From positions 1-60,170 of the forward strand of contig JBDRJD010000028.1 in assembly GCA_043815245.1 (NCBI GenBank): a stretch of DNA of 60,170 nucleotides, written 5' to 3'. The notes beneath the pieces are model-generated. The model searched no databases. It saw only the letters and a program-made list of their open reading frames with translations, and was not told where the DNA came from. The position numbers and the translations under genes were made by a program. Source of the DNA: an archaeon (lineage in GTDB: Archaea > Nanobdellota > Nanobdellia > Pacearchaeales > GW2011-AR1). Below, piece by piece: positions 10,393-45,134 of this stretch. The stretch's first letter is position 1; each line of letters opens with the position of its first letter.

Positions 10393-10427
10393 CTGGTATA
10401 TATTTAAAAGAGATTAGCAAAGATCAA

Positions 10428-10570
10428 AAAGTTTCAAGAGTTTATCCCCAAGGAATGACTTTTTGAAACTTTAGGATGCATGAAAATTCTGTTAAAGAAT
10501 TTTCTGCCCCGAAAATTTATTAAATTTTCGCTGCTCGGAAATGTTTTCTGGCACTTTACATTTCTGACAT
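10428..10570. repeat. Four-hairpin structured element, copy 1
   Basis: Stems AAAGTTTCAA/TTGAAACTTT, GAAAATTCT/AGAATTTTC, CGAAAATTT/AAATTTTCG and GAAATGT/ACATTTC. Linkers are shared with 23905-24035. Confidence 0.7.
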
Positions 10571-10603
10571 AAGCTTTAAAAATACTAAATAATAGTAATA
10601 TTT

Positions 10604-10981
10604 ATGGATTCGCGTAAAAGAGTATTTTTGACAGTGGTGGGTTTAACAGTTTTAGTTCTGGCTTTTTATTTTGTGGCAATGAATATTACAAAGTATACTG
10701 GATATGTGGCGATTACTGAGAAAGAGGATTATGATAGTTTTGCGCAGTGCTTAACAGATCAGGGAGTGATAATGTATGGGAGTGAGTTATGCGGGCACTG
10801 TAAAAATCAAAAAGAGACATTTGGAGAGTCGTTCAAGTATGTAACTTATGTTGAATGTACTGAACAACCAGAAGCTTGTGCTGGTTTAAGAGGCGTGCCG
10901 GCATGGGATATTAATGGAGAAATAATTTACGGAGAGCAATCTTTAGAGAAATTAGCTGAATTAGCTGGATGTGACTTATAA
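10604..10981 (+). CDS. Membrane-anchored thioredoxin-fold protein (CGHC)
   Basis: N-terminal TM, YG..CGHC..QK..FG, YVEC, GVPAW. Confidence 0.7.
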   Translation: MDSRKRVFLTVVGLTVLVLAFYFVAMNITKYTGYVAITEKEDYDSFAQCLTDQGVIMYGSELCGHCKNQKETFGESFKYVTYVECTEQPEACAGLRGVPAWDINGEIIYGEQSLEKLAELAGCDL

Positions 10982-10998
10982 AAAGAGGAAATTCTAAT

Positions 10999-11187
10999 AT
11001 GGCAAAAGTGAGTGTGGATAAAGAAAAATGCATTGGATGTGGCAACTGTGAGGCTGTAGCTCCAGAAATATTTGTTTTAAAGGGGAGTATGTCAGTAGTG
11101 AGAAAGGCAAGTGTGACTGGAGAAGATGAAAAAAAAGCAAAGGAAGCAAGGGATTCCTGCCCAACTGGTGCGATTATCCTAAAGTAG
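10999..11187 (+). CDS. Single-cluster ferredoxin
   Basis: CIGCGNC...CPTGAI. Confidence 0.85.
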   Translation: MAKVSVDKEKCIGCGNCEAVAPEIFVLKGSMSVVRKASVTGEDEKKAKEARDSCPTGAIILK

Positions 11188-11208
11188 ACTGGTTCTAAAT
11201 GCGAAAGA

Positions 11209-11281
11209 TTTATATATTATGTTAACTATAGTTAACTATACACAGGACACCTACGGTTTCCTCTGTAAAACCTTCCCTTAA
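11209..11281 (+). promoter_or_regulatory. TATA box plus perfect 16-bp palindromic operator plus leader motif, copy 1
   Basis: TTTATA 11209-14; GTTAACTATAGTTAAC 11221-36; ACCTACGG...TTCCCTTAA 11249-81. Spacing is identical to the copy at 15621. Confidence 0.75.
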
Positions 11282-11314
11282 TGGGGGTAAATAAATTTTC
11301 AGTTGGAGGTTAAA

Positions 11315-11683
11315 ATGTATTCTTTACCGCAAGAGATAGAAGTCTGGTACATAATTCCGGGAATTAGAAGAGAACTAGCTAGAGAACTAACACAAAAGCA
11401 TGATTTGACTTATGAGAAGGCTGGAAATATCTTGGGAGTCAGTAAAGCTGCTATCTCGCAGTATTTAAAAAACAAGAGAGCAAAAGAGATTAAATTTTCA
11501 GATAGCGTTAAAAAGGAGATTGAGAAGTCAGCGAAGGTCATAGTTAAAGATAATAAGATGGCTGTAAGGGAGATTATGAGGCTAATTTCAGTTGTGAAAA
11601 AGTCCAAATGTGCATGCGACATCTGTAAAAAGCATAATAAAGGAATCTTAGATATATGCGAGGGAAAAGTGAAAGAGTGTTAA
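11315..11683 (+). CDS. HTH transcriptional regulator (COG2522-like) with C-terminal Cys cluster
   Basis: PQEIEVWYIIP.IRRELA, HTH AG.ILGVSKAAISQYL, C-terminal CACDICKKH...C. GGAGGT SD precedes ATG 11315. Confidence 0.75.
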   Translation: MYSLPQEIEVWYIIPGIRRELARELTQKHDLTYEKAGNILGVSKAAISQYLKNKRAKEIKFSDSVKKEIEKSAKVIVKDNKMAVREIMRLISVVKKSKCACDICKKHNKGILDICEGKVKEC

Positions 11684-11692
11684 TTTAGGATT

Positions 11693-11845
11693 ATGAGAAT
11701 AAAATTTTGCCCAAAATGTAAAGATAGTGATCTCGTAATGGTTGCTGGAGCGCACATAGGCATGTGGAGATGTAAAAAGTGCGGGTTTACAGGCGCGATA
11801 TTTCCAGAAAAAGAAATAGAAAAACCTAAGAAAAAGAAAAAATGA
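11693..11845 (+). CDS. 50-aa Zn-ribbon protein (not in ORF track)
   Basis: MRIKFCPKCK...WRCKKCGFTG; ATGA overlap with iscS. Confidence 0.7.
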   Translation: MRIKFCPKCKDSDLVMVAGAHIGMWRCKKCGFTGAIFPEKEIEKPKKKKK

Positions 11846-12972
11846 AAGTTTACTTAGATAATGCTGCAACAACAAAGGTAGATAAGGAAGTAGTTGAAGC
11901 TATGATTCCGTATTTTAGTGAAAAGTTTGGCAATGCGTCAAGTTTGCACAAAAAAGGAGAGGAAGCAAGAAAGGCTGTTGAAGATGCGCGAGGAAAAATT
12001 GCTAAATTTTTGGGAGCTAATCCAGAAGAAATTATTTTTACTTCTGGGGGGACTGAATCTGATAATCTTGCAATTAAGGGCTTAATCCACGAAAATAAAT
12101 CAAAAAGGCATATTATTACTAGTAAGATAGAACATCCAGCAATTTTAGAAACCTGCAGATTTTTAGAGAAGAAAGGTTATGAAGTGGACTATGTTTCAGT
12201 TAATAAAGAGGGGGTGGTGAATATTGAGGAGATAAAAAAGAAAATTAAAAAAGATACGCTTCTTGTGAGTATAATGCATGTTAATAATGAACTAGGAACC
12301 ATTCAGCCAATTGAAGAGATTGCAGAATTGTGTAGAAAACAAAAAGTATACTTTCATACTGACGCTGTTCAAAGTTTTGGGAAGCTAAAAATAAACCTGG
12401 AAAATATAGATTTGTTAAGCGTATCCGGGCATAAGATAAATGGACCTAAAGGAATAGGTATGCTCTTTGTAAAGAAGGGCGTGAAAATCTCGTGCATAAT
12501 CCATGGAGGGAAGCATGAAAGAGGGCTAAGAGCAGGTACAGAAAATGTCCCGGGAATTGTTGGACTTGGAAAAGCTGTAGAGCTGTTAGATAAAAAAATG
12601 AAAAGTGCTGAAAAAGTTAGGAAATTAAAAAATAAACTAACAGAAGAGATACTGAAAATTGAGGGCGCGGGGCTAAATGGGGGCCATGAAAAAAGAATAT
12701 TTAGTAATGTTAATGTTTCATTTAAAGGTGTTGAGGGCGAGAGTTTAGTGCTATTGTTAAGTAAAGAAGGTGTGGAAGCAAGTACAGGTAGTGCGTGTTC
12801 AACGCATTCGCTAAAACCAAGCCATGTTTTAACTGCACTTGGTTTAAAAGAGGAAGAAGCTCATGGAAGTTTAAGATTAACTTTAGGGTTTGATACAACA
12901 GAAGAAGAGATTGATTATACTATTAAAAAAATAAAAGAATCAGTACATAAATTAAGGAGGATTGCAGGATGA
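11842..12972 (+). CDS. iscS: Cysteine desulfurase (IscS/NifS)
   Basis: YLDNAAT, FTSGGTES, HTDAVQ, SGHK (PLP Lys), GSAC catalytic Cys. Confidence 0.93.
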   Translation: MKVYLDNAATTKVDKEVVEAMIPYFSEKFGNASSLHKKGEEARKAVEDARGKIAKFLGANPEEIIFTSGGTESDNLAIKGLIHENKSKRHIITSKIEHPAILETCRFLEKKGYEVDYVSVNKEGVVNIEEIKKKIKKDTLLVSIMHVNNELGTIQPIEEIAELCRKQKVYFHTDAVQSFGKLKINLENIDLLSVSGHKINGPKGIGMLFVKKGVKISCIIHGGKHERGLRAGTENVPGIVGLGKAVELLDKKMKSAEKVRKLKNKLTEEILKIEGAGLNGGHEKRIFSNVNVSFKGVEGESLVLLLSKEGVEASTGSACSTHSLKPSHVLTALGLKEEEAHGSLRLTLGFDTTEEEIDYTIKKIKESVHKLRRIAG

Positions 12973-13550
12973 GCCTGCCAATTACAAGAGAAAAGGCAAT
13001 TGAATTGCTTAAAAAGTATAATAAAGATAAGCAAGATTTTAATCACTATTTAGAAAGTGAAGCAATAATGAGGAAACTAGCCGAAAAGTTGGAAGAAGAT
13101 GCAGATTATTGGGCAATGCTTGGACTTTTGCATGATATCGACTGGGGGATCACTAAGCAAGATACTAAGATCCACATGTCTAAAGCACCTGAGATATTAA
13201 AAGAGGCGGGTTTTGATGAAGAGTTTATTGAAACTGTGCTGTCTCATGGTTATGGGTTTGAAATACCCGGATTTGAAGATAAGAAAAGATCGAATAAAAC
13301 AGAGTATGCTCTGGCTTGTTCAGAAACCATCACGGGTCTGATTCATGCATATGCCTTAATGCGGGGCAGTAAGATAAGTGATATGGAAGTAAGCGGTTTG
13401 AAAAAAAAGTTTAAGGATAAAAGGTTTGCAGCAGCTGTAAGGAGAGATATTATTAGAGAGTGTGAAGGGCTAGGGTTGAGTCTAGAGGAGTTTTTTGAAG
13501 TTGCAATTAATGCTATTAAAGAAATTAAAGAGGAGGTCGGGTTAACATGA
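12969..13550 (+). CDS. HD/HDIG metal-dependent phosphohydrolase
   Basis: [23 protein letters not shown]. Confidence 0.8.
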
Positions 13551-14083
13551 AAATGTTTGAAGATATAAAGGCAATTTATAGGAATGATCCCGCTGCAAAA
13601 AATATTGAATTTTTGCTATATCCAAGTTGGCACGCTATACTTATCCACAGATGGATAGCACACCCGCTTTATTACATAAAAATCCCATTTATCCCAAGGT
13701 TAGTCTCACAAATTTCTCGTTTCCTAACAGGCATTGAGATTCACCCAGGAGCAAAAATAGGCCGTGGATTTTTCATAGATCATGGTATGGGGACAGTTAT
13801 TGGGGCGACAGCAGAAATTGGGAAAAACTGTGTAATGTATCATAATGTAACCCTTGGGGGAACAGGAAAGGAAGAGGGCAAAAGACACCCCACAATAGGA
13901 GATAATGTAATTATTGGCGTTGGATCCATATTACTTGGTTCAATGACTGTAGGAGATAATGTAAAAATTGGGGCAGATACATTCATAATAAATAAAAATG
14001 TTCCTTCATATTGCACTGTTGTAGGCACTCCTGGCCGGATTGTAAAGATAAAAAATAAAAAAGTCAATATTAAATTAAAATAA
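13547..14083 (+). CDS. cysE: Serine O-acetyltransferase
   Basis: [38 protein letters not shown]. Confidence 0.9.
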
Positions 14084-14084
14084 A

Positions 14085-14306
14085 ATGGGGGAAATAATAG
14101 CAAACATGAAAATAACAAAAAAATCGAAATTTAGTGAGATTTTAATGAACAAGCCAAAGGCAGCTGAGATTTTAATGGAAAAGGGCATGCACTGTGTAGG
14201 ATGTCCTATGTCAATGCAAGAAACTTTAGAACAGGGCTGCAAGGCACATGGGATGACAGAAAAAGAGATTCAGAGGCTGCTAGACCAATTAAATAAACTA
14301 AAATAA
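14085..14306 (+). CDS. DUF1858 / hybrid-cluster-associated redox domain protein
   Basis: GMHCVGCP...ETLEQG...HG. Confidence 0.8.
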   Translation: MGEIIANMKITKKSKFSEILMNKPKAAEILMEKGMHCVGCPMSMQETLEQGCKAHGMTEKEIQRLLDQLNKLK

Positions 14307-14310
14307 TAAA

Positions 14311-14688
14311 ATGGAATACTCAAAAAAAGTTATGCAGAACTTTTTCCATCCGAAGAATATGGGCAAGATAGAGGATGCTGATGGGATTGGAAGGGTTGGC
14401 AACCCAAGATGCGGGGATATTATGACGGTTTATATAAAGGTTGGAAAAAGGGGAAACGAAGATTATATAAAGGATATTCGGTTTCAAACCCTAGGATGTG
14501 CAGCTGCAATAGCTACATCTTCAATGATTACTCAACTAGCTAAGGGAAAAAGCTTGGATGAGGCAAGTAAAATTACAAGAGAGGAGATTGCTAAGAATCT
14601 GAAGGGACTTCCTCCGATTAAGATGCATTGTTCAAATTTGGCGGCAGATGCACTAAAAAAAGCAATTAAAGATTATCAAAAAGAATGA
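14311..14688 (+). CDS. iscU: Fe-S scaffold IscU/NifU
   Basis: YS..V...F.HP.N.G, GNPRCGD, GCAAAIA, K.HCS.LA. Confidence 0.93.
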   Translation: MEYSKKVMQNFFHPKNMGKIEDADGIGRVGNPRCGDIMTVYIKVGKRGNEDYIKDIRFQTLGCAAAIATSSMITQLAKGKSLDEASKITREEIAKNLKGLPPIKMHCSNLAADALKKAIKDYQKE

Positions 14689-15209
14689 GGACGATTGTAA
14701 CCTTGCTAAGTGTATTGGTTTTAGTGTTAGTAGGCTTATTACTAGTTGTAGGAGTTATGTTATACTCAACAATAAATGATGAAGTAAAAAAAGGGGCTTT
14801 AGAGTTTAGTGGAGTTGAGAATGGTGTTATTAATAATTCTGAGGCTTCATTTATGAAAGTTGAGCTAAATACTGAAAGTTTAGCGCTGGAAACAGAATCA
14901 TATCAGGAAAATTTAAAAAATACAGAGAATATTATTGAAGTAGATGATAGAGGTTTTTACATTGCAAACAGTTTAGTTTCAGGGTTATCGATTAGTAAGG
15001 GAGAGAATGTCAGGATTACGCTGAAGGTTAGGGGCTTAAATACTCAATTTGATGGACTTGATTTTAGAGGGTGCGGGGTGAATATAGGAAAGATTGATAG
15101 CGGAAAGTCAGAAACATTAGAATTAAAAGGGATAAATACGTGTTATATAGATGCATATTGGCCTTCAACTAATGCTATGAAGGCAAGATTAATGCTTAAT
15201 GTAAACTAA
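14685..15209 (+). CDS. Hypothetical membrane-anchored protein
   Basis: N-terminal hydrophobic helix; ATGA overlap with iscU. Confidence 0.55.
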   Translation: MRTIVTLLSVLVLVLVGLLLVVGVMLYSTINDEVKKGALEFSGVENGVINNSEASFMKVELNTESLALETESYQENLKNTENIIEVDDRGFYIANSLVSGLSISKGENVRITLKVRGLNTQFDGLDFRGCGVNIGKIDSGKSETLELKGINTCYIDAYWPSTNAMKARLMLNVN

Positions 15210-15238
15210 TGTTTAAGAAATGAAAGGGGGTTGATAAA

Positions 15239-15571
15239 ATGGCAAAAAAATCAAAAGGACTTGGAGGATGGGCATTCCTAATTGGGGTGATTCTTGCAAT
15301 TGTCTTTGCATTAATTGGTAGCCTTTCTAGCGGATTATTAATAGCTTTAGTAGTAATTGGATTGATAGTAGGATTATTGAATGTTACAGATGAAGAATCA
15401 ACACATTTCCTATTGTCTAGTGTAGCTTTAGTAATTGTGGCTGCATTTGGTTCAAATGTAGTTTCAGCTATTGATGTACTTGACAGGGTTCTGAATGCAT
15501 TGCTTGCAATCTTTGTACCAGCTACAATTGTAGTGGCTATAAGGAATGTTATGTCCATTGCAAAACACTAA
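15239..15571 (+). CDS. Hypothetical multi-pass membrane protein
   Basis: Hydrophobic helices, G..VGLLNV...E...FL; AGGGG SD upstream. Confidence 0.65.
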   Translation: MAKKSKGLGGWAFLIGVILAIVFALIGSLSSGLLIALVVIGLIVGLLNVTDEESTHFLLSSVALVIVAAFGSNVVSAIDVLDRVLNALLAIFVPATIVVAIRNVMSIAKH

Positions 15572-15620
15572 ACACCAACTTTTCTATTTTTATTTTTCTG
15601 GATTTCGTATATAGTAAACA

Positions 15621-15719
15621 TTTATATACTTTGTTAACTATAGTTAACTAAGCACGAGATACCTACGGTTTCTTCTGTAGGATCTTCCCTTAAGACAACA
15701 CCTAGGGCTAACTAAGCAC
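15621..15719 (+). promoter_or_regulatory. TATA box plus palindromic operator plus leader motif, copy 2, with 11-bp direct repeat
   Basis: TTTATA 15621-26; GTTAACTATAGTTAAC 15633-48; ACCTACGG...TTCCCTTAA 15661-93; TAACTAAGCAC at 15645-55 and 15709-19. Confidence 0.75.
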
Positions 15720-15815
15720 ATATTCTTTCGTTCTTAATTTGGAGGTAAATTAAAATGGGCGGGAAATTAAGAAGCTTATGAAAACTGTTAAATAGGCTAG
15801 AAAACTAGAACTAAA

Positions 15816-16409
15816 ATGAGGTTTTCAGAAAAAGAGATAAAAGATTTGTTTTTTGCTTGGATTATGATTTCTCTAGCTTTTGCTATTTTATTTTCTGGAG
15901 GATTAAGCTTTTTTTCTTCACTAAATAAATTTGTAATTGCCTTGGGAATCTCAGCTTTTACAGTAGGAATTGGGTTTTTGTTTCACGAATTAATGCATAA
16001 GTATTATGCGCAAAGATATAGACTTTGGGCGGAATTTAGGGCTTTTTATAATATGCTATGGCTGGCTTTGGCTCTATCTTTATTTGGGTTTATTATTGCA
16101 GCTCCTGGAGCGGTTATGATAAGAGGTTACCTTAACAAGGAACAGCACGGTAAGATCTCGTTAGCAGGGCCTGCAACTAATATTGTTTTGGCGGCAATAT
16201 TTTTAGTTCCACTAGTTTTACTGAAACCAGTAGGTGTACTAAATCTATTATTTTCATATGGGCTGACAATTAATGCATTACTGGCTCTGTTTAATATGAT
16301 TCCTGTTCAGCCTTTTGATGGGGGTAAGATTTATAACTGGAATCGGACTGTATACTTTATTACTACTTTAATAGCCTTAGGGCTGTTTATTTTAAGTTTT
16401 ATATTTTAG
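15816..16409 (+). CDS. Site-2 protease (M50) family Zn metalloprotease
   Basis: HELMH, AAPGAV, SLAGP..N, FNMIP..PFDG. Confidence 0.85.
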   Translation: MRFSEKEIKDLFFAWIMISLAFAILFSGGLSFFSSLNKFVIALGISAFTVGIGFLFHELMHKYYAQRYRLWAEFRAFYNMLWLALALSLFGFIIAAPGAVMIRGYLNKEQHGKISLAGPATNIVLAAIFLVPLVLLKPVGVLNLLFSYGLTINALLALFNMIPVQPFDGGKIYNWNRTVYFITTLIALGLFILSFIF

Positions 16410-16418
16410 GAGGTAAAC

Positions 16419-16652
16419 ATGGCAAAAAAAGTAATTGTATATTCAACAGAAACATGCCCCTGGTGTCACAGAGTTAAGGATTGGTTAAAAGAAAAAAAGG
16501 TTAAGTTTGAAGATAAGAATGTTGCTGAAGATGCTAATGCTGCGCAGGAAGCAGTTGAAAAGAGTGGACAAATGGGAGTTCCGGTGATTGATGTAGATGG
16601 AGAGATTATTGTTGGTTTTGACAAAGAGAAGTTAGAAAAGGCTTTGAAATAA
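16419..16652 (+). CDS. Glutaredoxin/NrdH-like redoxin
   Basis: YSTETCPWC, SGQMGVPVI, IVGFD; GGAGGT SD. Confidence 0.85.
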   Translation: MAKKVIVYSTETCPWCHRVKDWLKEKKVKFEDKNVAEDANAAQEAVEKSGQMGVPVIDVDGEIIVGFDKEKLEKALK

Positions 16653-16656
16653 AACT

Positions 16657-17058
16657 TTACCTTGGGGCAGGTGTTTGACTAACTTTTTTATTATTTGTAG
16701 CTGCAGGTTTTCTATGTGGAATTTGATTATTTTTTACTTTTTCTGCTAAGCTTTCTTTATGGGCTGAAGTCAGTAACTGATATGAAAGAGTTTTATAGCC
16801 ATCTCCAAGAAGGCAGGCGCTAAATACTAAAGAGTAAGCATCTTTTTCAAGGCCTGACAATCCTCTGATTTCTTTGTATAGTTCAGTTTGCAGACGCTTT
16901 TGGTAAGAATCTTCACCAACTGGTCCTTCTGGGATTGCAAGCTCATTCCTAACTTGTTGCTTAACATTAGAGTATCTTTGTTGAGCGAGAGCTATTAAAA
17001 AAAGTGTTTCAGTATCTATTTCTGAAGTGTTGTTTTTATTTCTATTAAATATTCCCAT
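16657..17058 (-). CDS. Hypothetical protein
   Basis: ORF with a TATA box exactly 23 nt upstream (17082-87), supporting real expression. Confidence 0.55.
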   Translation of the reverse strand: MGIFNRNKNNTSEIDTETLFLIALAQQRYSNVKQQVRNELAIPEGPVGEDSYQKRLQTELYKEIRGLSGLEKDAYSLVFSACLLGDGYKTLSYQLLTSAHKESLAEKVKNNQIPHRKPAATNNKKVSQTPAPR

Positions 17059-17133
17059 TTAGGGGTTAGTTTTATTGGTTTTATAAAGTTATTGTAATCA
17101 ATAAAAACAGAAAGTAATAAAAATAATGAATAC

Positions 17134-17586
17134 TTGGACTTTCAAAGAATAATGGAAGACTTTATTGAATCTCTGAAAGCAGAGCATGAAGACATTGAAA
17201 GGGAGTTAATGGAATTAGAGGTTATTGCCCAATCCCAGATTGTTAATTATTCTAATTTGTTGCATGTATTTAAGAAAATTGTTGCTTTATGGGACCATCA
17301 TGAAAAAAAAGAGGAGTTAATTTTTCCTAAGTTGAAAAGGAGTAATATCCTTATTCCTGTTGAGAAAATGTTATTTGACCATAGAGAGTTAAAGCCATAT
17401 AAAGATACAATAAAAAGAGCAATAGAATCTGGAAGTGAGTTTGAGGTTAAAAGAGCTCTGCGAGTTTCTGGGAAAGTGATAAGTGAGAAATTAAGAGAAC
17501 ATATTCAAGATGAAGAAAATGCCTTGTTTTCAGCGGTACTAGACCAATACACAAAAGAAGAGCTTAACAAAATTTGGGCGGGCTAG
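17134..17586 (+). CDS. Hemerythrin/HHE cation-binding domain protein
   Basis: L..EH, HH.KKEE..FP, M..DH, EHI..EE..LF. Start uncertain (TTG). Confidence 0.75.
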   Translation: MDFQRIMEDFIESLKAEHEDIERELMELEVIAQSQIVNYSNLLHVFKKIVALWDHHEKKEELIFPKLKRSNILIPVEKMLFDHRELKPYKDTIKRAIESGSEFEVKRALRVSGKVISEKLREHIQDEENALFSAVLDQYTKEELNKIWAG

Positions 17587-18428
17587 TGCTTCTTTTTTCT
17601 AGTTTTTCTTTGCTTTTTCTTTACCTTCCTATAGATAATTATCGTAAGGATAAGAATTATTAAGAATATTATCAATAAATAAATTAAAAACCAGAAGTCA
17701 AGTGCGATTAATCCAATAAAAGGAATTTCAACTGTAGGAATTATTTCTACACACTCGCGGATTTCAACTTTTGTTTCTTCACATGAATTCAGGTCGTTGC
17801 ATACTCTTTGCTGCGTGCTTTTCTTACAGCTTGTCCAGTCAGAACATTCCCATTTTACAAAGCAGGGGTTAAATTCTGAGTCATCTAAAAGATTAGTACA
17901 CCCAGGATCATCAATAAAATCTACTAAACCATCCTCATCATTGTCAATACCATCTTCACACTCCCTTGGAGGAAACCTTGAACCTCCTCCACCTCCACCA
18001 CTAGGCGGCTGTTCTGGAGAAAAGGCACAGAGAGATTCATTAAAATAACAATCTGAAGTGCAATTTAAGATTCCGTAAGCATATCCTAAAGAGCTACAAG
18101 TCTGGTTAGCTAGGTTTGAGAGGTCGCATTCTTCTCCATAATCTACATTGTTATCTCCACAAAAAGAAGTTACTTGAAAGCTACCTGAAACCTCAAAGGC
18201 AGTAGCTAACTCTAAATCGGATTTGAAAAAATCTATGATACTTTTAAAAAACTCTTTGACTTTAGAAAAAAATCCTTCGCCATTTTCTTGTACATCAGCA
18301 AGAGTCTCATTACCTTCAATTACTCCTCCTGTAATTACAAATCTGCCAGTAGTGGATTTAGCTGAAACTAAGAAAGTTCCAGATATAATAATAAGTAAGA
18401 AGATAACTACTGTAAGACGCATTTTCAC
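17583..18428 (-). CDS. Surface protein: signal peptide, Cys-rich repeats, poly-Gly, TSP1-like module, C-terminal TM anchor
   Basis: FCGDNNVDYGEECD, CEDGIDNDEDGLVD..DDPGC, W.CS.W..C....Q.R.C, TM followed by a basic tail. Confidence 0.7.
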   Translation of the reverse strand: MKMRLTVVIFLLIIISGTFLVSAKSTTGRFVITGGVIEGNETLADVQENGEGFFSKVKEFFKSIIDFFKSDLELATAFEVSGSFQVTSFCGDNNVDYGEECDLSNLANQTCSSLGYAYGILNCTSDCYFNESLCAFSPEQPPSGGGGGGSRFPPRECEDGIDNDEDGLVDFIDDPGCTNLLDDSEFNPCFVKWECSDWTSCKKSTQQRVCNDLNSCEETKVEIRECVEIIPTVEIPFIGLIALDFWFLIYLLIIFLIILILTIIIYRKVKKKQRKTRKKKH

Positions 18429-18431
18429 CTC

Positions 18432-18956
18432 CTATCTTTTTCTTTTTCTGTACAAGTAAATGATGATTATTGCTAGAAGTATTATTATAGCTATTGATAA
18501 GATTACAATTACTGGAATGAGGTAGCTTGGACTTGGAGGCTCATATAGATTTGGGCCTGATCTCTGAGCAACGGCACTTACTGTTACTGGAAGGCCACAG
18601 GTTTTTATATTGACTGTTGAACCTTCTGATTCAAGAGGCATACACAAAATGCAGAAGGTAGTCTTATAATCCCCGAATGATGCACCTTTAGAAAGAACAA
18701 CTTCTCCTTGAACATTAAAACGCTGGTTTTGAGCTACTGTATAATTGTCTTCTAGAATTATCTGTAAGTTGTCTGAACTTTCTATTTCAGGAATACAAAT
18801 AATGGGAAAGTGGTCAGACTGTATTTGGAAAATAAAGTAATTGTTTTCTCCTGGACGTAATTCCATATTTTGTGGTTGTGGAAAAGTAACTCCTACGGCA
18901 CTGACTACACTAGCTAGGAAAATTCCTAAAAGCAAAGTTAAAATTATTCTTTTCAT
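18432..18956 (-). CDS. Single Ig-like domain membrane protein (DUF916/NEW3-like)
   Basis: Signal peptide, GV.FP...L.PGE...F.F, G.Y...F, C-terminal TM plus RKRKR. Confidence 0.6.
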   Translation of the reverse strand: MKRIILTLLLGIFLASVVSAVGVTFPQPQNMELRPGENNYFIFQIQSDHFPIICIPEIESSDNLQIILEDNYTVAQNQRFNVQGEVVLSKGASFGDYKTTFCILCMPLESEGSTVNIKTCGLPVTVSAVAQRSGPNLYEPPSPSYLIPVIVILSIAIIILLAIIIIYLYRKRKR

Positions 18957-18957
18957 T

Positions 18958-20721
18958 TTATAGCGGGAGTTGGGTTATTGTAATATCTGTTTCATAGGTT
19001 CCTGGCTCTAGGTTTACTGGCGGCAAGATATGGAAGTAGGTGTCTAGGGTTTCATCTAAACTTGAACTATCGCAAGTCATCCTATCGCAAACATCTAGTC
19101 CGCCTGATGGGTAGAATTCTCTGACAAAGGCTGTTTCTGGAATTGTGATAGGGAAAAAGCCGGTTTCTGTAGACTCACCTTGAAGATTATCATCATCTAA
19201 TTCAAATTCTGGATTAGAAGTTATATCCCAACAAGTAGTATTACTTGGAGAGCAATCAGAGGGGGCTCCTAATCCAAAGTCAGTTGCTTCCCAAGTTAAA
19301 TTGAGTAATACGTTTCCTGAATTGTTTGCTACTGCTAAACAGCTACCTGGATTCCAAGAGCCTAGTTGGATATCGTTACCACCACAAGTGCTTGGATCAC
19401 CTAGGTCTACTGAAGATGAGTAGAAAATATCTGGGAGAGAACCGTATGTCCAATTAGCATTAAAAATTGTAGTGGAAGCGCCAGCCTGGCTACTTGCATT
19501 TACATGAATCTTGTAATCTCCTGGGGATCTGAAAAATTCTACTGAGTTTGCATTTCCCTGGGCAATATCAACAGTAAAATTACAAAATTCATTTGAGGCT
19601 GCTGAATATGATAAGGTAAAGGAATAGTTTGCATTTGTAGGAAGACAAGTTACTGAGCCTGCTGCATCTACTAAACATAGGTCTGCGCCAGCAGCGTGTG
19701 TTGGAAAGCCGCCACAGTCTCTATCAGAATCATTAAACCGATAGGTTATATGGATTGGGGCATAAGTTCCAGCTGCTGGGTTTACAAAGCAGTTTTGCAC
19801 AAAGCCGGTACAGGAAAGTTCATTTGCTGAAACATCTGAAAGATAGACGTCAACAAACTGGGGTAGGTGATCTACTAATTCGAATGTTGAGTCATTATTT
19901 GAAGAATTTATCATAAAGTTATCTGTTGTCCAGATTCTTGCGTATGCTGTTGTGCGGGCGTCTAATGCTCCGGGAGTTCCCCAAGGTATTGGATTGGTGA
20001 CAGTTGCTTGAGGTGAAGAGGCAGCAGGGTCTGCTAGATAGGAATTGTCAGTAAAAGCAGTTCCGACTTGAACGTGGTACGTAAGAGTGTCTGCTGGCCA
20101 GTGATCTTGGCTGCCATCATCTAAGTCTATTGCTGTCCAGTTAATATCTGGTGTTTGATCATGAGTTTCTAACGGTACAAAGCTATGAGGATTAGTAGGA
20201 ACCTGGTTTAGTAAAGTAAAATTATACTGGTTAATTGAAGAGTTTGAAGGAACTCTATCATCTTCTGCATAAAGATCTACGTAGAATAATTTTGAGCATA
20301 AACCAGAGATAAAGTTACAATCTGTGTCGTTTAAATAAATAGTATTAGAAACACCCGGGCCTGCTGGATCTGTTCCGTAGGTGTAACTTTGAGGTGAGTT
20401 TCTCGGAGAAGGGCCAATTGTATAATTTGCAATTGTACAAGCATTATTAGAGTAAGGATTTGGTGTTGTGCCAATACAGATAGTTGTTGTAATTTGGTCT
20501 GGGTTTGGGTCGCGCACTCTCCAACGTATTTCCGTTGTTAAATCATGCGTGGTAAGTACTGTGTCATCCCAGTGAGTGTTGCTATCTCTAACCTCATAAT
20601 CAGAAGTATAGGGCGGTTCGTTAGCAACTTGAAATCTTCCACGTGATGTTTGTTGTGATAAAACTAGATAAGAAAACATAATAATCAGTATAATGCTTGC
20701 AATAATCACCGTCCTTTTCAT
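18958..20721 (-). CDS. Secreted beta-rich protein with C-terminal WxL/fimbrial-like domain
   Basis: Signal peptide, no TM anchor. C-terminal ~190 aa are paralogous to 20766..22787 and end in PGTYETDITIT. TATA box 23 nt upstream. Confidence 0.6.
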   Translation of the reverse strand: MKRTVIIASIILIIMFSYLVLSQQTSRGRFQVANEPPYTSDYEVRDSNTHWDDTVLTTHDLTTEIRWRVRDPNPDQITTTICIGTTPNPYSNNACTIANYTIGPSPRNSPQSYTYGTDPAGPGVSNTIYLNDTDCNFISGLCSKLFYVDLYAEDDRVPSNSSINQYNFTLLNQVPTNPHSFVPLETHDQTPDINWTAIDLDDGSQDHWPADTLTYHVQVGTAFTDNSYLADPAASSPQATVTNPIPWGTPGALDARTTAYARIWTTDNFMINSSNNDSTFELVDHLPQFVDVYLSDVSANELSCTGFVQNCFVNPAAGTYAPIHITYRFNDSDRDCGGFPTHAAGADLCLVDAAGSVTCLPTNANYSFTLSYSAASNEFCNFTVDIAQGNANSVEFFRSPGDYKIHVNASSQAGASTTIFNANWTYGSLPDIFYSSSVDLGDPSTCGGNDIQLGSWNPGSCLAVANNSGNVLLNLTWEATDFGLGAPSDCSPSNTTCWDITSNPEFELDDDNLQGESTETGFFPITIPETAFVREFYPSGGLDVCDRMTCDSSSLDETLDTYFHILPPVNLEPGTYETDITITQLPL

Positions 20722-20765
20722 GTTATATGTTTGTAAATCTATTATTTAAATATTTCTATTATTGA

Positions 20766-22787
20766 TTATGAAGGAATAAGGATGTTAATTTGTACGGCAC
20801 CTTCATAAGTTCCCTCTGGGAGCTCTGGAATTTTCATATTGTAGTAAGTTTTAAAACGCTCTCCAATTGAGTTATTGCATTTATCTGATATGCAAGTTCT
20901 TAGATAGGGGTATGGGGAAAAATAAGCAACACTATAGTTTGTAAGATAGGCTGGGTAGACTCCTGTTTCTGTTGTTTCATTAAAGAAAGGATCATCATCA
21001 ACCTGGAAAACCGGATCTGGCCAGGAAATATCCCATCTTCCGGAACATAAGAGGGGGGAGACACACTGGAAGTTCTGGCCTTGCCAAGTGAGATTTACCC
21101 CTATATTTCCCTGGTTAACTAAATCAACGCCGCCCGTAGGGCGAGAAGTGACCCATTGATTTGCCACTAAGTTTCCAAAATCAATCAGGTCAGTATAATT
21201 AATTGCTGTGAGGGTATTGTATGTGAAGTTTGTTTGATTTGAAACTGTGCCTGCTAGCTCAACTCTTACAATCCAAGTTCCGGGTTTTCTAAAGAACTGC
21301 ATTGCATCTGTTCCTTGGTATTGATAGAAGCAGTTTCTATTTGAAATGCGGTATTGATATGTTAAAGGAACTAGATAAGTATAATTTGTTGAGTTGCAGA
21401 CTGTTTGCTGTTGAGTTGCGACAGTCCGAGTTAGCCTGCCTTGTGAAGAGAAGACGAGATAATCAACTTCTTCTGCTGCATGATTTCTTTCTGAGTCGCT
21501 ACACTGGTCTTCGTCTATTGCAAGGTTAATTACAGAGGTTATTGGAGAAGAGCCAAATAAATAAGCCCAGCCGCCATTGCCTCCATTCATTGCTACTTGA
21601 CTTGCAACTCCAACTGAGAATGTAGAGGATAAAGAGCAAGGATATGGGGGGGAGTTGTCTATTCCCCGGATAGTATTACCTGTGCGGCCAGCTTCATAAT
21701 CCAGATTACCGATTGTTCCTGTACCTTGCTCAAATACTATATAACCCATGGTTTCATTTTTTCTTACTCGATTTGGATCTTCAGCTACATGTTTTCCAGT
21801 GTAAAGATTAGATGTTGGCGGATCTGCTTGGTTTCCATTTGAGCACCAGAACGAGCTCCAGTTTGTATCATTGTAAGACATTACTTGTCCGATTACTCTT
21901 GGATTGGCATAACTTTGTGAAAATCCGGTATTAACCGGGGTCCAGTCGCCACTTCGGTCTGTTTGAGTGGAAGTGTAAGTGAAGGCTTCGAGTTTAGTGC
22001 CATCTTCTAAATTGTACGCTCCTTTTTCTATGATTAGACAGGTAACATCTGAAGAAGTTGGAGTGGTTAAATCGCAGGGATTTTGAATTTTCAAATCAAA
22101 ACTTGAGCTGGTGATATTTTTAATTCTTGTTACTGCTGGGGGGTCTGTTGTAGAGGGGATATTATAAGTACAGACAATTACAGGAGAAGAGTATGAACCA
22201 AGGAGAGGCACGGTCTGCCAGTTTCCTCCAACATTTGAAATTTTCCTGATTTCTCCAAAAGATAATACAGAAGAGCCTGTAACGGGCTCACAGAGATATG
22301 CAGATAGTTGATACCGTGTGCACTGCTGCGCAAAAAGAACTGAATTAATAGTAATATTGGAATTAGTTCCTGCAATGGGATTAACAATATAGTCTTGGGG
22401 ATTTTCTAAATCTGAGATGTATGTATTATAAATCTGCCATGATTCTGGGGGGGCGAGAACATCAAAAAAATCAAACTCCCAGTCATCAATTCGATAATCA
22501 AAAGTTGCAATGTAGTATTGGCCTTCAAAGTTAGAAGGAATGATATAATCAATAAGGGTAGGTCTTGTAGTGCAAGGATTTGAACAGTCTGTGTTAATTG
22601 TGTCTACAACCGTGGAGTTTTTCATCACATAAAGTATTGGGTAGAATCCGTAATTCCTGTTAGGGCGAATAACAATTCTTAAATCCTGTCCAGAGTAAAG
22701 TTCTGTTGGAGAGATAGTGGTTATTGCAGATACAGTTTCAATTAAGAAAATCATTATTATAAACAAAATAATACATCTCTTTAACAT
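20766..22787 (-). CDS. Secreted protein with H-type-lectin-like repeats and the same C-terminal domain
   Basis: SY.SPVIVCT...DPPAV.RI.NITSSSFDL; second repeat Y.NP.VIGQV; C-terminus EGTYEGAVQINI. Confidence 0.6.
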   Translation of the reverse strand: MLKRCIILFIIMIFLIETVSAITTISPTELYSGQDLRIVIRPNRNYGFYPILYVMKNSTVVDTINTDCSNPCTTRPTLIDYIIPSNFEGQYYIATFDYRIDDWEFDFFDVLAPPESWQIYNTYISDLENPQDYIVNPIAGTNSNITINSVLFAQQCTRYQLSAYLCEPVTGSSVLSFGEIRKISNVGGNWQTVPLLGSYSSPVIVCTYNIPSTTDPPAVTRIKNITSSSFDLKIQNPCDLTTPTSSDVTCLIIEKGAYNLEDGTKLEAFTYTSTQTDRSGDWTPVNTGFSQSYANPRVIGQVMSYNDTNWSSFWCSNGNQADPPTSNLYTGKHVAEDPNRVRKNETMGYIVFEQGTGTIGNLDYEAGRTGNTIRGIDNSPPYPCSLSSTFSVGVASQVAMNGGNGGWAYLFGSSPITSVINLAIDEDQCSDSERNHAAEEVDYLVFSSQGRLTRTVATQQQTVCNSTNYTYLVPLTYQYRISNRNCFYQYQGTDAMQFFRKPGTWIVRVELAGTVSNQTNFTYNTLTAINYTDLIDFGNLVANQWVTSRPTGGVDLVNQGNIGVNLTWQGQNFQCVSPLLCSGRWDISWPDPVFQVDDDPFFNETTETGVYPAYLTNYSVAYFSPYPYLRTCISDKCNNSIGERFKTYYNMKIPELPEGTYEGAVQINILIPS

Positions 22788-23218
22788 GGTTCTAGATCGT
22801 TATAGCTAGGAGAGTTGTCGTAGCAAAGCTGGCCTCCTTGCTGTAATCTTGGGATGATGTAAAATTCGGTAATTGGCTTGTTATATGCAACATAAACCGT
22901 TTTCTGTTCATAAGCTCCAATAACAGTTCTTGGGGGAGTGGGAATTTTTTCTGAAGTTCCGTCTTGATAGTTAAATAAAAAAAGTAAAAAATCCCCAATA
23001 GCAGGAGCCTTGTTATTTTTTACCTCCACTTGGAGGACATTATTAGTATAGCAGGCTGATAAAATTGTCACGTCTACATCTTGAAGGCAGGAAAATTTTT
23101 CTCCTTCTTCATATATATTGAAGTTCTTTATAATTAGAAGTAAGGCAAGAGATGCAGTGACTACAATTAGAATTAGTAGTACAATTATGACTAAGTTTGC
23201 GTTCCCTCTTTTTCTCAT
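22781..23218 (-). CDS. Pilin-like protein with class III signal peptide
   Basis: MRKRG/NANLVIIVLLILIVV; paired Cys (C..V.V.I..AC) and a terminal Cys pair. Confidence 0.55.
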   Translation of the reverse strand: MRKRGNANLVIIVLLILIVVTASLALLLIIKNFNIYEEGEKFSCLQDVDVTILSACYTNNVLQVEVKNNKAPAIGDFLLFLFNYQDGTSEKIPTPPRTVIGAYEQKTVYVAYNKPITEFYIIPRLQQGGQLCYDNSPSYNDLEPC

Positions 23219-23293
23219 TTTTCTTTAAAATATTAGAGAAACACACTTTAAATTACTTTTTCTTCTTTCGAGGATAATTTTATATTCAAAACA

Positions 23294-23322
23294 ACCTACG
23301 GTTTTTTTGGATTTTCCCTTAA
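23294..23322 (+). repeat. Third copy of the ACCTACGG...TTCCCTTAA motif
   Basis: ACCTACGGTTTTTTTGGATTTTCCCTTAA, lying between two TTTATAT boxes (23279, 23329). Confidence 0.55.
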
Positions 23323-23357
23323 GATAGCTTTATATAATTTAGTTGATAATGTTAGTT

Positions 23358-23774
23358 ATGGAAAAAGGTGTTCAGGGGGTAGTGTTTTTAGCAATTGCCG
23401 TGGGGTATTACTTATTCTGGAGTGTAGTATATAATAGTATTCATGGAAATTTTAAAGTCTTTTTGTGGGTAGTATGGCTGGTTTTAGTAATCTCTTTTAT
23501 ATTCTGGCTGGCAAATCATATGCTGTTAAAAAAGAAGTATACTGCGATGAAAAGTGAGCAGTTAGGACTTGAAGTACACAAGAGGCCATTTGCAGTATCT
23601 TTCTTGATTTACTTAGGATATGTACTTGGATTTCTTTCAATGGGGCTTGGAGTTTTTGCACTATCGCTTAAAACTGAGCAGAGTTTTGATGTGTTTTTAG
23701 TGACGATAATTATTGGGCTGGTAATCACCTCAATTGTTTTCTTCGTCGACAGAGAACCCAGACACCACTACTAA
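23358..23774 (+). CDS. Hypothetical 4-TM membrane protein
   Basis: Hydrophobic helices. Start moved to ATG 23358, 23 nt after TTTATA 23329-34. Confidence 0.6.
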   Translation: MEKGVQGVVFLAIAVGYYLFWSVVYNSIHGNFKVFLWVVWLVLVISFIFWLANHMLLKKKYTAMKSEQLGLEVHKRPFAVSFLIYLGYVLGFLSMGLGVFALSLKTEQSFDVFLVTIIIGLVITSIVFFVDREPRHHY

Positions 23775-23852
23775 GTTACTCTGCTCCTCTTAAACTATAT
23801 CTTTTATTATAGAAATGTTTAAATACTAAAGAGAATTATAGTTTATATCTTA

Positions 23853-23900
23853 ATACAATTATTGGTATCAATAATGGTTAAGACATACAATATATTGTAG
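23853..23900. promoter_or_regulatory. Tandem NrdR boxes
   Basis: ATACAATATATTGTAG (23885-900) matches the consensus acaCwAtATaTwGtgt at 13/16. A weaker ATACAATTATTGGTAT lies at 23853-68, exactly 32 bp upstream. Confidence 0.75.
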
Positions 23901-23904
23901 GTCA

Positions 23905-24035
23905 AGAAGTCCGTGAGTGTTTTTGGACTTCTGGATGCGAGAAAATTCCTTACAAATTGGGAATTTTCTGCACAGAAAATCTCACGATTTTCTTGTGCTC
24001 AGAAAAATCTGCCAATGTAACAGTTTTTCTGACAT
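23905..24035. repeat. Four-hairpin structured element, copy 2 (nrdR 5' region)
   Basis: Stems AGAAGTCC/GGACTTCT, AGAAAATTCC/GGAATTTTCT, GCACAGAAAATC/GATTTTC(T)TGTGC and TCAGAAAAA/TTTTTCTGA. Confidence 0.7.
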
Positions 24036-24036
24036 T

Positions 24037-24558
24037 ATGATGCTATGCCCTTACTGTGGGAAGAAAGAAACAAAAGTTACTGACAAAAGAGATGTTGAGG
24101 GAGTTGTAAGAAGAAGACGTGAATGTTTAAAGTGTAAGAGGAGATTTACAACTTATGAAAGATTTGAACTCAGTAAGTTTTATATTATAAAGAAAGATAA
24201 AAGAAGAGAGACGTATAACCGGGAGAAGTTGTTATCAGGCATGGTTAAGGCTTGTGAAAAAAGGCCTGTAAGCCATGATAAGATTGAGAAGGCTGTTAAT
24301 GAAATTGAAGAAAAGATAAGGAAGAAAAAAGAAGTAAAAAGTGAGATAATAGGTGAAATGGTTATGAATAAGCTAAAGAGGTTGGATAAGGTTGCTTATA
24401 TCCGATTTGCATCAGTTTATAAGGATTTTAAAGATATTGATGACTTTAGAAATGTCGTGAAGGACATTTCTAAGAGCTCTCAAAAATCTAAAGATTTTCG
24501 AAGTTTTGAAAATATGGTAAAAGAGGTCAACCTTTCAAAAAGGTTGCCAAAGAGATAG
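24037..24558 (+). CDS. nrdR: Transcriptional repressor NrdR with C-terminal hairpin-encoded extension
   Basis: CPYC...RRRRECLKC..RFTTYE, ATP cone, LDKVAYIRFASVY. The track's N-terminal extension from 23917 is the repeat element. Confidence 0.93.
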   Translation: MMLCPYCGKKETKVTDKRDVEGVVRRRRECLKCKRRFTTYERFELSKFYIIKKDKRRETYNREKLLSGMVKACEKRPVSHDKIEKAVNEIEEKIRKKKEVKSEIIGEMVMNKLKRLDKVAYIRFASVYKDFKDIDDFRNVVKDISKSSQKSKDFRSFENMVKEVNLSKRLPKR

Positions 24559-33742: not shown

Positions 33743-33865
33743 GGATCCGTAGCTCAGTTGGTTAGAGCACTGGCCTTTTACAAAAAACTTCGTTTTTTGT
33801 CCTTCAAAAAAACAATGTTTTTTGAAGTAAGCCAGGTGTCGGGGGTTCAAGTCCCTCCGGGTCCA
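33743..33865 (+). tRNA. trnK: tRNA-Lys (anticodon UUU) with 49-nt canonical 37/38 intron (33781-33829); CCA not encoded
   Basis: Full cloverleaf: GGATCCG/CGGGTCC, GCTC/GAGC, CTGGC/GCCAG, GGGGG-TTCAAGT-CCCTC. BHB with central helix CUUU/GAAG and inner A6/U6 helix. Confidence 0.93.
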
Positions 33866-34014: not shown

Positions 34015-34221
34015 ATGCACGTTCTACAGCCAAAACATTCTAAGACAAGCCAAAAAGAAGCGAAAGAGATATTGCAAAAACTGAATATATCTAGTTCTCA
34101 GTTGCCAAAAATCAATGTAGAAGACCCGGCACTACCAGAAGGTTGTGAAGAGGGAGATTTAATAAAAATTGAGAGGAAGACTGACAAAGGGACTGTAGTT
34201 TATTATCGTATTGTGGTTTAA
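34015..34221 (+). CDS. rpo5: RNA polymerase subunit Rpo5 (H)
   Basis: HVLQPKH, QLPKI...DP, GD.IKI.R, YYRIV. Confidence 0.93.
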   Translation: MHVLQPKHSKTSQKEAKEILQKLNISSSQLPKINVEDPALPEGCEEGDLIKIERKTDKGTVVYYRIVV

Positions 34222-34247
34222 ATCAATGGAAAAAAATTTTTAATACA

Positions 34248-45017: not shown

Positions 45018-45134
45018 TTTTCACTGCTTAAGTATTAATTCTTAAAGATAACATTTAAAACAGGTTAGACAAAGAAAAATTAGTAGTTCTCGGAATGCAG
45101 AAAATATTAAATAGACCAATATTGAACTTTATGA

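Follow-up and report, generated by a model that had tools for sequence, protein, structure and literature searches.

The 60,170-nt stretch of archaeal DNA analyzed here (the "window"; contig JBDRJD010000028.1 of GenBank assembly GCA_043815245.1, positions 1 to 60,170, from a member of the Pacearchaeales lineage GW2011-AR1) harbors two copies of an element composed of four hairpins with conserved junctions between them. This element is probably a small, non-coding, non-autonomous mobile hairpin repeat of Woesearchaeota- and Pacearchaeota-type DPANN archaea, similar in kind to the miniature inverted-repeat transposable elements (MITEs) and to the REP and BOX repeats, and such a mobile hairpin repeat is previously undescribed. 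This reading is preferred because the element occurs in many copies with a patchy distribution, has sharp ends, can be aligned between filled and empty sites, shows no common gene context, possesses a conserved structure, and is built from modules nested within each other.

The two copies in the window

Both copies are located on the plus strand, and their bounds and hairpins (HP1 to HP4) were defined from sequence, fold, and model score. Copy 1 (positions 10423 to 10570) begins with ATCAAAAAG and contains HP1 at 10428 to 10472, HP2 at 10474 to 10509, HP3 at 10510 to 10530, and HP4 at 10532 to 10569. Copy 2 (23901 to 24035) begins with GTCAAGAAG, with HP1 at 23901 to 23936, HP2 at 23940 to 23969, HP3 at 23970 to 23998, and HP4 at 23999 to 24032. 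Both finish with TTTCTGACAT. These bounds were refined by direct reading and alignment, the ends indicated by the covariance model being 2 bases further downstream, at 10572 and 24037. The order common to both copies is HP1-(A/T)GGATGC-HP2-CTGC-HP3-TGCTC-HP4-TGACAT, and the junctions GGATGC, ATTTTCTGCNNNGAAAAT, and TGCTCRGAAA...TTTCTGACAT are kept in both. The stems differ in length and sequence, and HP1 is fully paired in both copies despite an unrelated sequence.

The folding energy was −43.5 kcal/mol for copy 1 (z = −5.6) and −51.2 kcal/mol for copy 2 (z = −6.0), and none of 200 shuffled sequences equaled the value of either copy. Covariance model R1 assigned 118.9 bits to copy 1 and 122.5 bits to copy 2. 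With up to 2 mismatches allowed, 0.82 chance occurrences of the junction 18-mer were expected in the window, versus matches at both copies. A preliminary description of this DNA, which had reported two four-hairpin copies with conserved junctions and freely varying stems and loops, was borne out by sequence, alignment, and fold. The extension of HP4 with a bulged C that it had also proposed is feasible, but it competes with a GCAC/GUGC extension of HP3 and, consisting of invariant bases only, is outside the reach of covariation. A degenerate fragment suspected at 45087 to 45105 did not hold up, as this region gave no model match at an E value of 1 or less and no match to GGATGCNNGAAAATTC with up to 3 mismatches.

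Copy number and distribution

Model R1 had been built from 8 copies (alignment A3). Its use on the window's own 0.92-Mb genome yielded about 16 loci, so that the two copies originally reported are both real but an undercount, and building a covariance model and searching this genome and its relatives, the check that had been advised, produced many more. Among 61 relatives from the same order, copies were present in 16; the raw match counts in the richest of them were 44, 34, 22, 12, 11, and 10, with some opposite-strand mirror matches included in these whole-genome counts. A search across the class at an E value of 1e-9 or less found a copy in only 4 of 301 genomes. The junction 18-mer ATTTYCTGCRCAGAAAAT was present 6 to 13 times in several related genomes, where its surroundings were the same four-hairpin element. 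When public contigs containing this 18-mer were evaluated, all 34 matches confirmed by the model came from metagenome-assembled genomes (MAGs) labeled Woesearchaeota, Pacearchaeota, Nanoarchaeota, or "archaeon." Bacterial matches to the 18-mer were attributed to chance, with none confirmed by the model; additional seed-motif matches in the window's own genome, all in coding DNA, were also regarded as chance. Nor was a viral or plasmid vector found, with no copy in 23 viral contigs that contained seed matches.

No Rfam family matched the element at the gathering threshold, and only noise was returned at a permissive E value of up to 10; a literature search did not find a published description of the family. 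The preliminary description, too, had not recognized the element as a described family. In one relative (G044, contigs 6, 10, 11, and 14; loci L143, L154, and L183), several copies were situated at contig ends, which suggests that the repeat breaks MAG assemblies.

Modular architecture of the family

The family is modular, and its commoner form contains two hairpins, ATCAAAAAGT..HP1..AGGATGC/TCAG..HP4..TGACAT. Most copies in the window's genome are of this two-hairpin form (ATCAAAAAGTTCC..GGAACTTTAGGATGC/TCAGAAAT..ATTTCTGACATAA) with a length of 61 to 122 nt, and the basic element reads 5'-AT/CAAAAAGTYC..GRACTTTWGGAT-GC-TCAGAAAT..ATTTCTGAC/AT-3'. The four-hairpin form is the two-hairpin form plus an HP2-HP3 pair (AAGAAAATTC..GAATTTTCT-GCAC-AGAAAATC..GATTTTCTTGTGC) between GGATGC and TCAG; this insert is flanked by GC on either side, and its site is the unpaired GC linker between HP1 and HP4. 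Each of the four hairpins is a variant of the same palindromic unit, CARRAAAT...ATTTYYTG. Further mini-hairpins, such as CCACAYYY..RRRTGTGG, are nested in the loops of HP1 and HP4, one nested pair being TCAGGAAT..ATTCCTGA-TAGTC-ATCAAAAATC..GATTTTTGA, and the hairpin loops can be as short as 3 nt or exceed 40 nt. The ends of the element are sharp and constant (ATCAAAAA...GACAT), the flanks are unrelated between copies, and abutting tandem copies use one common AT (GAC-AT-CAAAAAG).

One subfamily has the 3' end ..GGTTTCAATTTATGGACAT (the TTTATGGACAT subfamily). It was seen on contig 41 of the window's genome (12017 to 12181 and 12628 to 12781, minus strand) and at loci L245, L249, L045, and L284. 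In 7 of 13 copies, the terminal AT and a G make up the codon with which the downstream open reading frame (ORF) starts (MKKR.., MRKRGQFY.., MRFS..). Members of this subfamily hold an internal TATA-like GTAAATTTAAGG and a GGTGG motif and could be a portable promoter plus leader.

Conservation of the structure

Covariation was evaluated in 40 four-hairpin copies from six genomes (alignment A5). Standard base pairs filled 94.5% of the pair cells versus 83.1% in column shuffles, and 0 of 500 shuffles reached the observed value. Double-sided changes were present in 27 of the 42 pairs. When the partners were slid by 1 to 3 columns as a control, pairing fell to 30 to 63%. Alignment A5 had been fitted to the model, which somewhat favors the structure; the four helices are nevertheless secure, as demonstrated by the slid controls and by the many pair types in HP1 and HP4. 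The selection on hairpin structure plus junction sequence postulated at the outset was shown by the covariation over these 40 copies. G-U pairs (25) were not clearly favored over A-C mismatches (15; P = 0.15), and because this excess was not significant, there was no clear sign of selection on one strand, for instance as RNA.

Filled and empty sites

The flanks of the copies were compared with those in a second genome of the same genus (G001), which is fairly distant, its NrdR being only 74% identical. In the nrdR leader, the empty site of G001 reads TTGTAC-TT-TAAAATGTTATGTCC and the filled site of the window TTGTAG-(GTCAAG...CTGAC)-AT-TATGATGCTATGCCC, and both align without gaps once the element in parentheses is removed. 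In the spacer upstream of a thioredoxin-like gene, the empty G001 site AAAG-AG-AAGCTTTAAAAATAC corresponds to AAAG-(ATCAAAAAG...CTGAC)-AT-AAGCTTTAAAAATAC in the window. The reciprocal situation was also encountered: the window contains an empty site at 15809 to 15818 on the plus strand (AACTAAA-AT-GAGGTTTTC), and G001 contains at this site a 199-nt element (contig 9, 13276 to 13474; AACTAAA-(ATCAAAAAAACC...GGAC)-AT-GAGATTTTC). This third case is base-exact and matches in both flanks, with one AT in the window and two in G001.

All three pairs fit a net gain of the length of the element minus 2 bp, at AT. This fits an apparent 2-bp duplication of AT or, equivalently, an insertion inside an AT or adjacent to one. 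Another two copies of G001 were missing at the orthologous sites of the window's genome, with flanks too diverged for a statement at the base level. The insertion sites of the copies are AT dinucleotides within AT-rich spacers. Both copies in the window are, on the evidence of these alignments, insertions, with the same flanks in G001 lacking the element.

Search for a mobilizing enzyme and points against mobility

Hairpin formation would be needed for propagation of the element, which is suggested by subfamilies in which compensating changes preserve every stem. Folded single-stranded DNA is the probable substrate and would be recognized by a structure-specific enzyme. The preliminary description had left the choice between a structured RNA and a single-stranded DNA substrate; its BIME-like, single-stranded DNA option is the nearer one, the element being an array of 2 or 4 palindromic units and dispersed, inserted DNA.

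Several observations weigh against a mobile repeat. No transposase could be tied to the element, and a Y1/HUH transposase would be the only, weak candidate. Y1 transposases of the IS200 type were found in 16 of the 61 genomes, including all five with at least 12 copies of the element, and in 6 of the 16 element-bearing genomes; the resulting association of Y1 with the element is weak (odds ratio, 2.1; P = 0.32). Moreover, the resident IS200-like Y1 elements have their own, different left and right end hairpins. A Y1 or RAYT partner is not supported, given this nonsignificant association and the differing ends, and a Y1 fragment beside a copy in G044 represents a rearrangement breakpoint, not a clean filled site. 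The sole IS200-type Y1 gene of the window's own genome (contig 33, 113 to 457, minus strand; 136 amino acids) resides on a 2.5-kb contig between GC-rich hairpins unrelated to the repeat. The element-rich genomes lack both TnpB and DDE enzymes of the IS630 type. A function as a TnpB guide (omega) RNA, which would be encoded beside a tnpB or iscB gene or at its end, was dismissed, with no TnpB match above the curated cutoff in G000, G019, G032, and G044 and a single subthreshold match of 19.9 bits in G044. An IS630/Tc1-type partner, which was considered for the 2-bp duplication, was rejected in view of the absence of DDE_3 from the element-rich genomes.

To these points can be added that the element shows no lock to a replication strand, both strands being used within single long contigs, and that it has no real terminal inverted repeats, the ends being alike over 6 to 8 nt only (TCAAAAA versus TCAGAAA or TCAAGAA). 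A terminal stem between these ends is not supported, as their variation does not covary. The AT duplication was deduced from three comparisons with the rather distant G001, one of them base-exact, and a search of the flanks for an extended target motif found none, with only the AT constant 5' of the element. Finally, a mild bias for the sense orientation (23:12; P = 0.09, with the copies of the window's own genome added) and the placement near start codons could reflect a role at the RNA level.

Comparison with known mobile repeats

REP units carry a GTAG or CGTC tetranucleotide tag at one end (PMC3733652). Neither tag nor its complement is present in the consensus of the element, whose units are preceded by AT, GC, GCA, or GCT. 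The units of REP, BIME, and REPIN are imperfect palindromes of 20 to 40 bp that are thought to act as folded single-stranded DNA, and the element resembles them with its intergenic arrays of 2 or 4 units of about 20 to 35 nt in which compensating changes keep the structure. In contrast to the REP/BIME/REPIN-RAYT systems, there is no single-copy Y1 gene flanked by units of the element, which is moreover archaeal, of fixed polarity, and equipped with two dissimilar ends. Like PATEs, which are derived from IS200/IS605, the element has no inverted ends, carries HP1 at the 5' and HP4 at the 3' end, and occurs together with Y1 in the five copy-rich genomes mentioned above. Unlike PATEs, its hairpins are only 0 to 3 nt away from the ends, too close for guide and cleavage sequences to fit in, it lacks the conserved target of 4 to 5 nt 3' of which PATEs insert, both strands are used per contig, and the ends of the resident IS200-like elements differ.

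The BOX elements of Streptococcus pneumoniae are dispersed intergenic repeats of about 100 to 200 bp, non-coding and strongly structured, without a clearly assigned transposase, and composed of modules at the ends plus internal ones that vary in number. All these properties (dispersed, intergenic, modular, structured, non-coding, no clearly assigned transposase) are shared by the element; BOX elements, however, are bacterial and unrelated in sequence, and the modules of the element are all one palindromic unit, accompanied by the 2-bp AT duplication. Correia/NEMIS elements of Neisseria and ERIC elements of enterobacteria insert at TA, duplicate it, and possess long terminal inverted repeats, which fold together into a single long hairpin; they are found near promoters or gene starts, are transcribed with their neighbors as hairpins, and can change gene expression. 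The element is likewise small and non-autonomous, with a palindromic dinucleotide duplicated and a position at expression signals, but it duplicates AT, has no real inverted ends, and forms two or four separate hairpins. The MITEs SM1 to SM4 of Sulfolobus carry the inverted ends of an identifiable insertion sequence (IS) family in the same genome and produce short target duplications. They share with the element that they are small, non-coding mobile repeats of archaeal spacers with a short target duplication, whereas the searches for TnpB and IS630-type enzymes did not reveal an IS partner for the element. A classical DDE-derived MITE would agree with the short, apparent AT duplication but not with the lack of inverted ends that match an autonomous IS. 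For each of these families, the element fails defining tests.

A more far-reaching version of the mobile repeat is doubtful but conceivable. The family may be an unrecognized type of archaeal mobile element, in which self-nesting pairs of mini-hairpins would enter unpaired dinucleotides (AT in spacers, GC in the linker of another copy) and the loops of other copies, with a 2-bp duplication each time, mobilized by an enzyme unlike the known transposases. At least one subfamily (TTTATGGACAT) would then be a possible portable promoter plus 5' leader, its terminal AT rebuilding a start codon.

Genomic context and alternative functions

For 44 of 48 copies from G044 and G019, both neighboring genes were present. 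Their settings were tandem-sense (17 copies), tandem-antisense (9), divergent (12), and convergent (6). Many copies immediately precede a promoter or are found at, or close to, a start codon, and several, including copy 1, abut the transcription factor B recognition element (BRE) and TATA box of a gene whose mRNA appears to lack a leader. A co-oriented gene follows downstream of 41 copies, and 19 of these copies end not more than 45 nt away from the gene start. As an example of the context, two copies in one genome flank a gene for a protein with a metallo-beta-lactamase fold.

These positions could alternatively result from structured RNA modules, either small RNA genes or elements of untranslated regions (UTRs), that had spread by transposition or duplication and were kept for an RNA function. 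Protein binding, stabilization or processing of transcripts, and control of translation at the abutted start codons are possible roles. Such an explanation is unlikely. It agrees with the strong covariation in every helix, the somewhat better folding of the plus strand compared with the minus strand, the sense preference in tandem gene settings, the 19 copies close to a downstream start, and the fact that copy 2 and the TTTATGGACAT subfamily must lie within 5' leaders. On the other hand, the flanks of the copies revealed neither a conserved promoter at a constant upstream distance nor a downstream terminator, antisense and convergent settings are frequent (15 of the 44 copies), the G-U and A-C counts give no strand signature, the orthologous sites in the sister species are without copies, and Rfam contains no match. 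A box C/D small RNA, characterized by a C box (RUGAUGA), a D box (CUGA), and a K-turn, was also considered and rejected: AGGAUGC differs from the C box in two places, the CUGA forms Watson-Crick pairs with UCAG within HP4, and a terminal stem is missing.

Since both copies in the window are in the sense orientation, one upstream of nrdR-nrdD and the other upstream of a gene for a CxxC protein, the element might have been a riboswitch or protein-binding RNA in the leaders of a nucleotide reduction and redox regulon comprising nrdR-nrdD and the thioredoxin-like gene. This is most improbable. The synteny of both genes is the same in G001, where the element is missing, and none of the nrdR loci of 29 relatives (G001 plus 28 others) carries it. 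In tblastn searches with NrdD, the thioredoxin-like protein, and their neighbors against the copy loci, no copy in the relatives was found beside an nrdD or thioredoxin-like gene; the copies adjoin unrelated genes instead. In addition, copy 1 is situated upstream of the promoter, outside the mRNA, and nrdR already has canonical NrdR boxes. A cis-regulatory leader is already contradicted by the comparative data, and the cis-regulatory RNA option of the preliminary description, in view of the missing copies at the orthologous G001 sites, the 29 empty nrdR loci, and the occurrence of all gene orientations, is not supported.

Just as little credence can be given to arrays of double-stranded DNA operators, with the palindromes of the hairpins or of the junctions (ATTTTCTG-CA-CAGAAAAT) as binding sites of a dimeric transcription factor: the junction 18-mer, with its fixed spacing, is almost perfectly palindromic, but stem extensions past the conserved half-sites covary, which is not required of a protein binding site, the loops vary from 3 to more than 40 nt, the element inserts as one unit with sharply defined ends and a constant polarity, and the flanking genes are mutually unrelated.

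Genes adjacent to the two copies

The upstream ORF has its stop codon 30 nt before copy 1, which in turn immediately precedes the promoter of the thioredoxin-like gene. This putative promoter, a BRE/TATA-like 15-mer (AAGCTTTAAAAATAC; 10571 to 10585, plus strand) assigned from position and sequence, abuts the 3' end of copy 1 and is kept in G001, where the element is absent. Its position suggests that the mRNA of the thioredoxin-like gene, with an ATG at 10604, may be leaderless or possess a short leader. The gene itself (10604 to 10981, plus strand, an ORF downstream of copy 1) encodes a membrane-anchored CGHC protein without a Pfam match; the label "thioredoxin-like" was derived from the CxxC motif only, and the G001 ortholog, in the same synteny, is 69% identical. 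Copy 1 is probably without effect or, at most, contained in a 3' UTR.

Copy 2 precedes nrdR (24040 to 24558, plus strand), which has matches to the Pfam domains Zn_ribbon_NrdR and ATP-cone and a start, MLCPYC, aligned to that of the relatives. The nrdR gene is followed by nrdD (24562 to 26907, plus strand) for a class III anaerobic ribonucleotide reductase (Pfam NRDD, E = 1e-144). An extra in-frame ATG of nrdR exists at 24037, and copy 2 ends 1 nt before this position. NrdR operators consist of paired 16-bp boxes about 31 to 32 bp apart that resemble acaCwAtATaTwGtgt. In the window, box 1 (ATACAATTATTGGTAT; 23853 to 23868) agrees in position and spacing with the paired boxes upstream of nrdR in relatives, and box 2 (ATACAATATATTGTAG; 23885 to 23900) matches the pattern with 1 mismatch. 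The centers of the boxes are 32 bp apart, and copy 2 starts at the base following box 2. These two canonical NrdR boxes just upstream of copy 2 are the predicted regulatory sites of nrdR. The hairpins were rejected as NrdR operators, as the true boxes are outside the element and the hairpins are unlike them.

A conserved nrdR promoter motif (GAAATGTTTAAATAC) is located at 23812 to 23826. Because copy 2 is downstream of this motif and of the NrdR boxes, it should be co-transcribed as part of the leader of nrdR-nrdD, in which a single nucleotide would separate the end of HP4 from the AUG. A stable hairpin at this position may affect the translation of nrdR, as a lineage-specific insertion and not as an ancestral regulatory device. 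The nrdR gene is conserved in 49 of the 61 relatives; in the relatives, two canonical NrdR boxes (similar to ATACAATATATTGTA, about 32 bp apart) are situated upstream, and the ATG of nrdR follows after 6 to 30 nt. Boxes 32 bp apart precede nrdR-nrdD in the window and in most relatives of the order (loci L060 to L088), and, therefore, these DPANN archaea appear to use a bacterial-type NrdR autoregulation of their class III ribonucleotide reductase operon.

Other features of these genomes

On contig 13 of the window's genome, outside the window (about 19420 to 20060), a tRNA gene is apparently interrupted by about 500 nt, with a compact ortholog in G001. The insert holds an ORF similar to HNH endonucleases (..CANCHREIH) and may be a large intron or a homing element. 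Within the window, Rfam called a tRNA that spans 123 nt (33743 to 33865; 58 bits) and presumably contains an intron, and ARAGORN reported no tRNA in the whole window. On contig 10 of G001 (34148 to 34269, locus L287), a two-hairpin copy separates the promoter of a tRNA gene from the 5' end of that gene and would therefore be part of the leader of the tRNA precursor. Directly upstream of an element copy on contig 41 of the window's genome (about 12800 to 13130, minus strand), a GC-richer, structured-looking stretch may be an RNA gene, such as that for RNase P RNA or signal recognition particle RNA.

Implications

The genomes of DPANN archaea are among the smallest and most streamlined cellular genomes, yet this family fills many of their spacers at promoters and start codons. 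Streamlined genomes may thus still host active, structure-dependent mobile DNA without a recognizable transposase. Its insertions can hit regulatory leaders, as exemplified by copy 2 between the NrdR operators and the start codon of nrdR-nrdD. For annotation, the family explains many signals resembling structured RNAs and some of the assembly breaks in these MAGs. The mobilizing enzyme, if found, may be a new structure-specific DNA recombinase.

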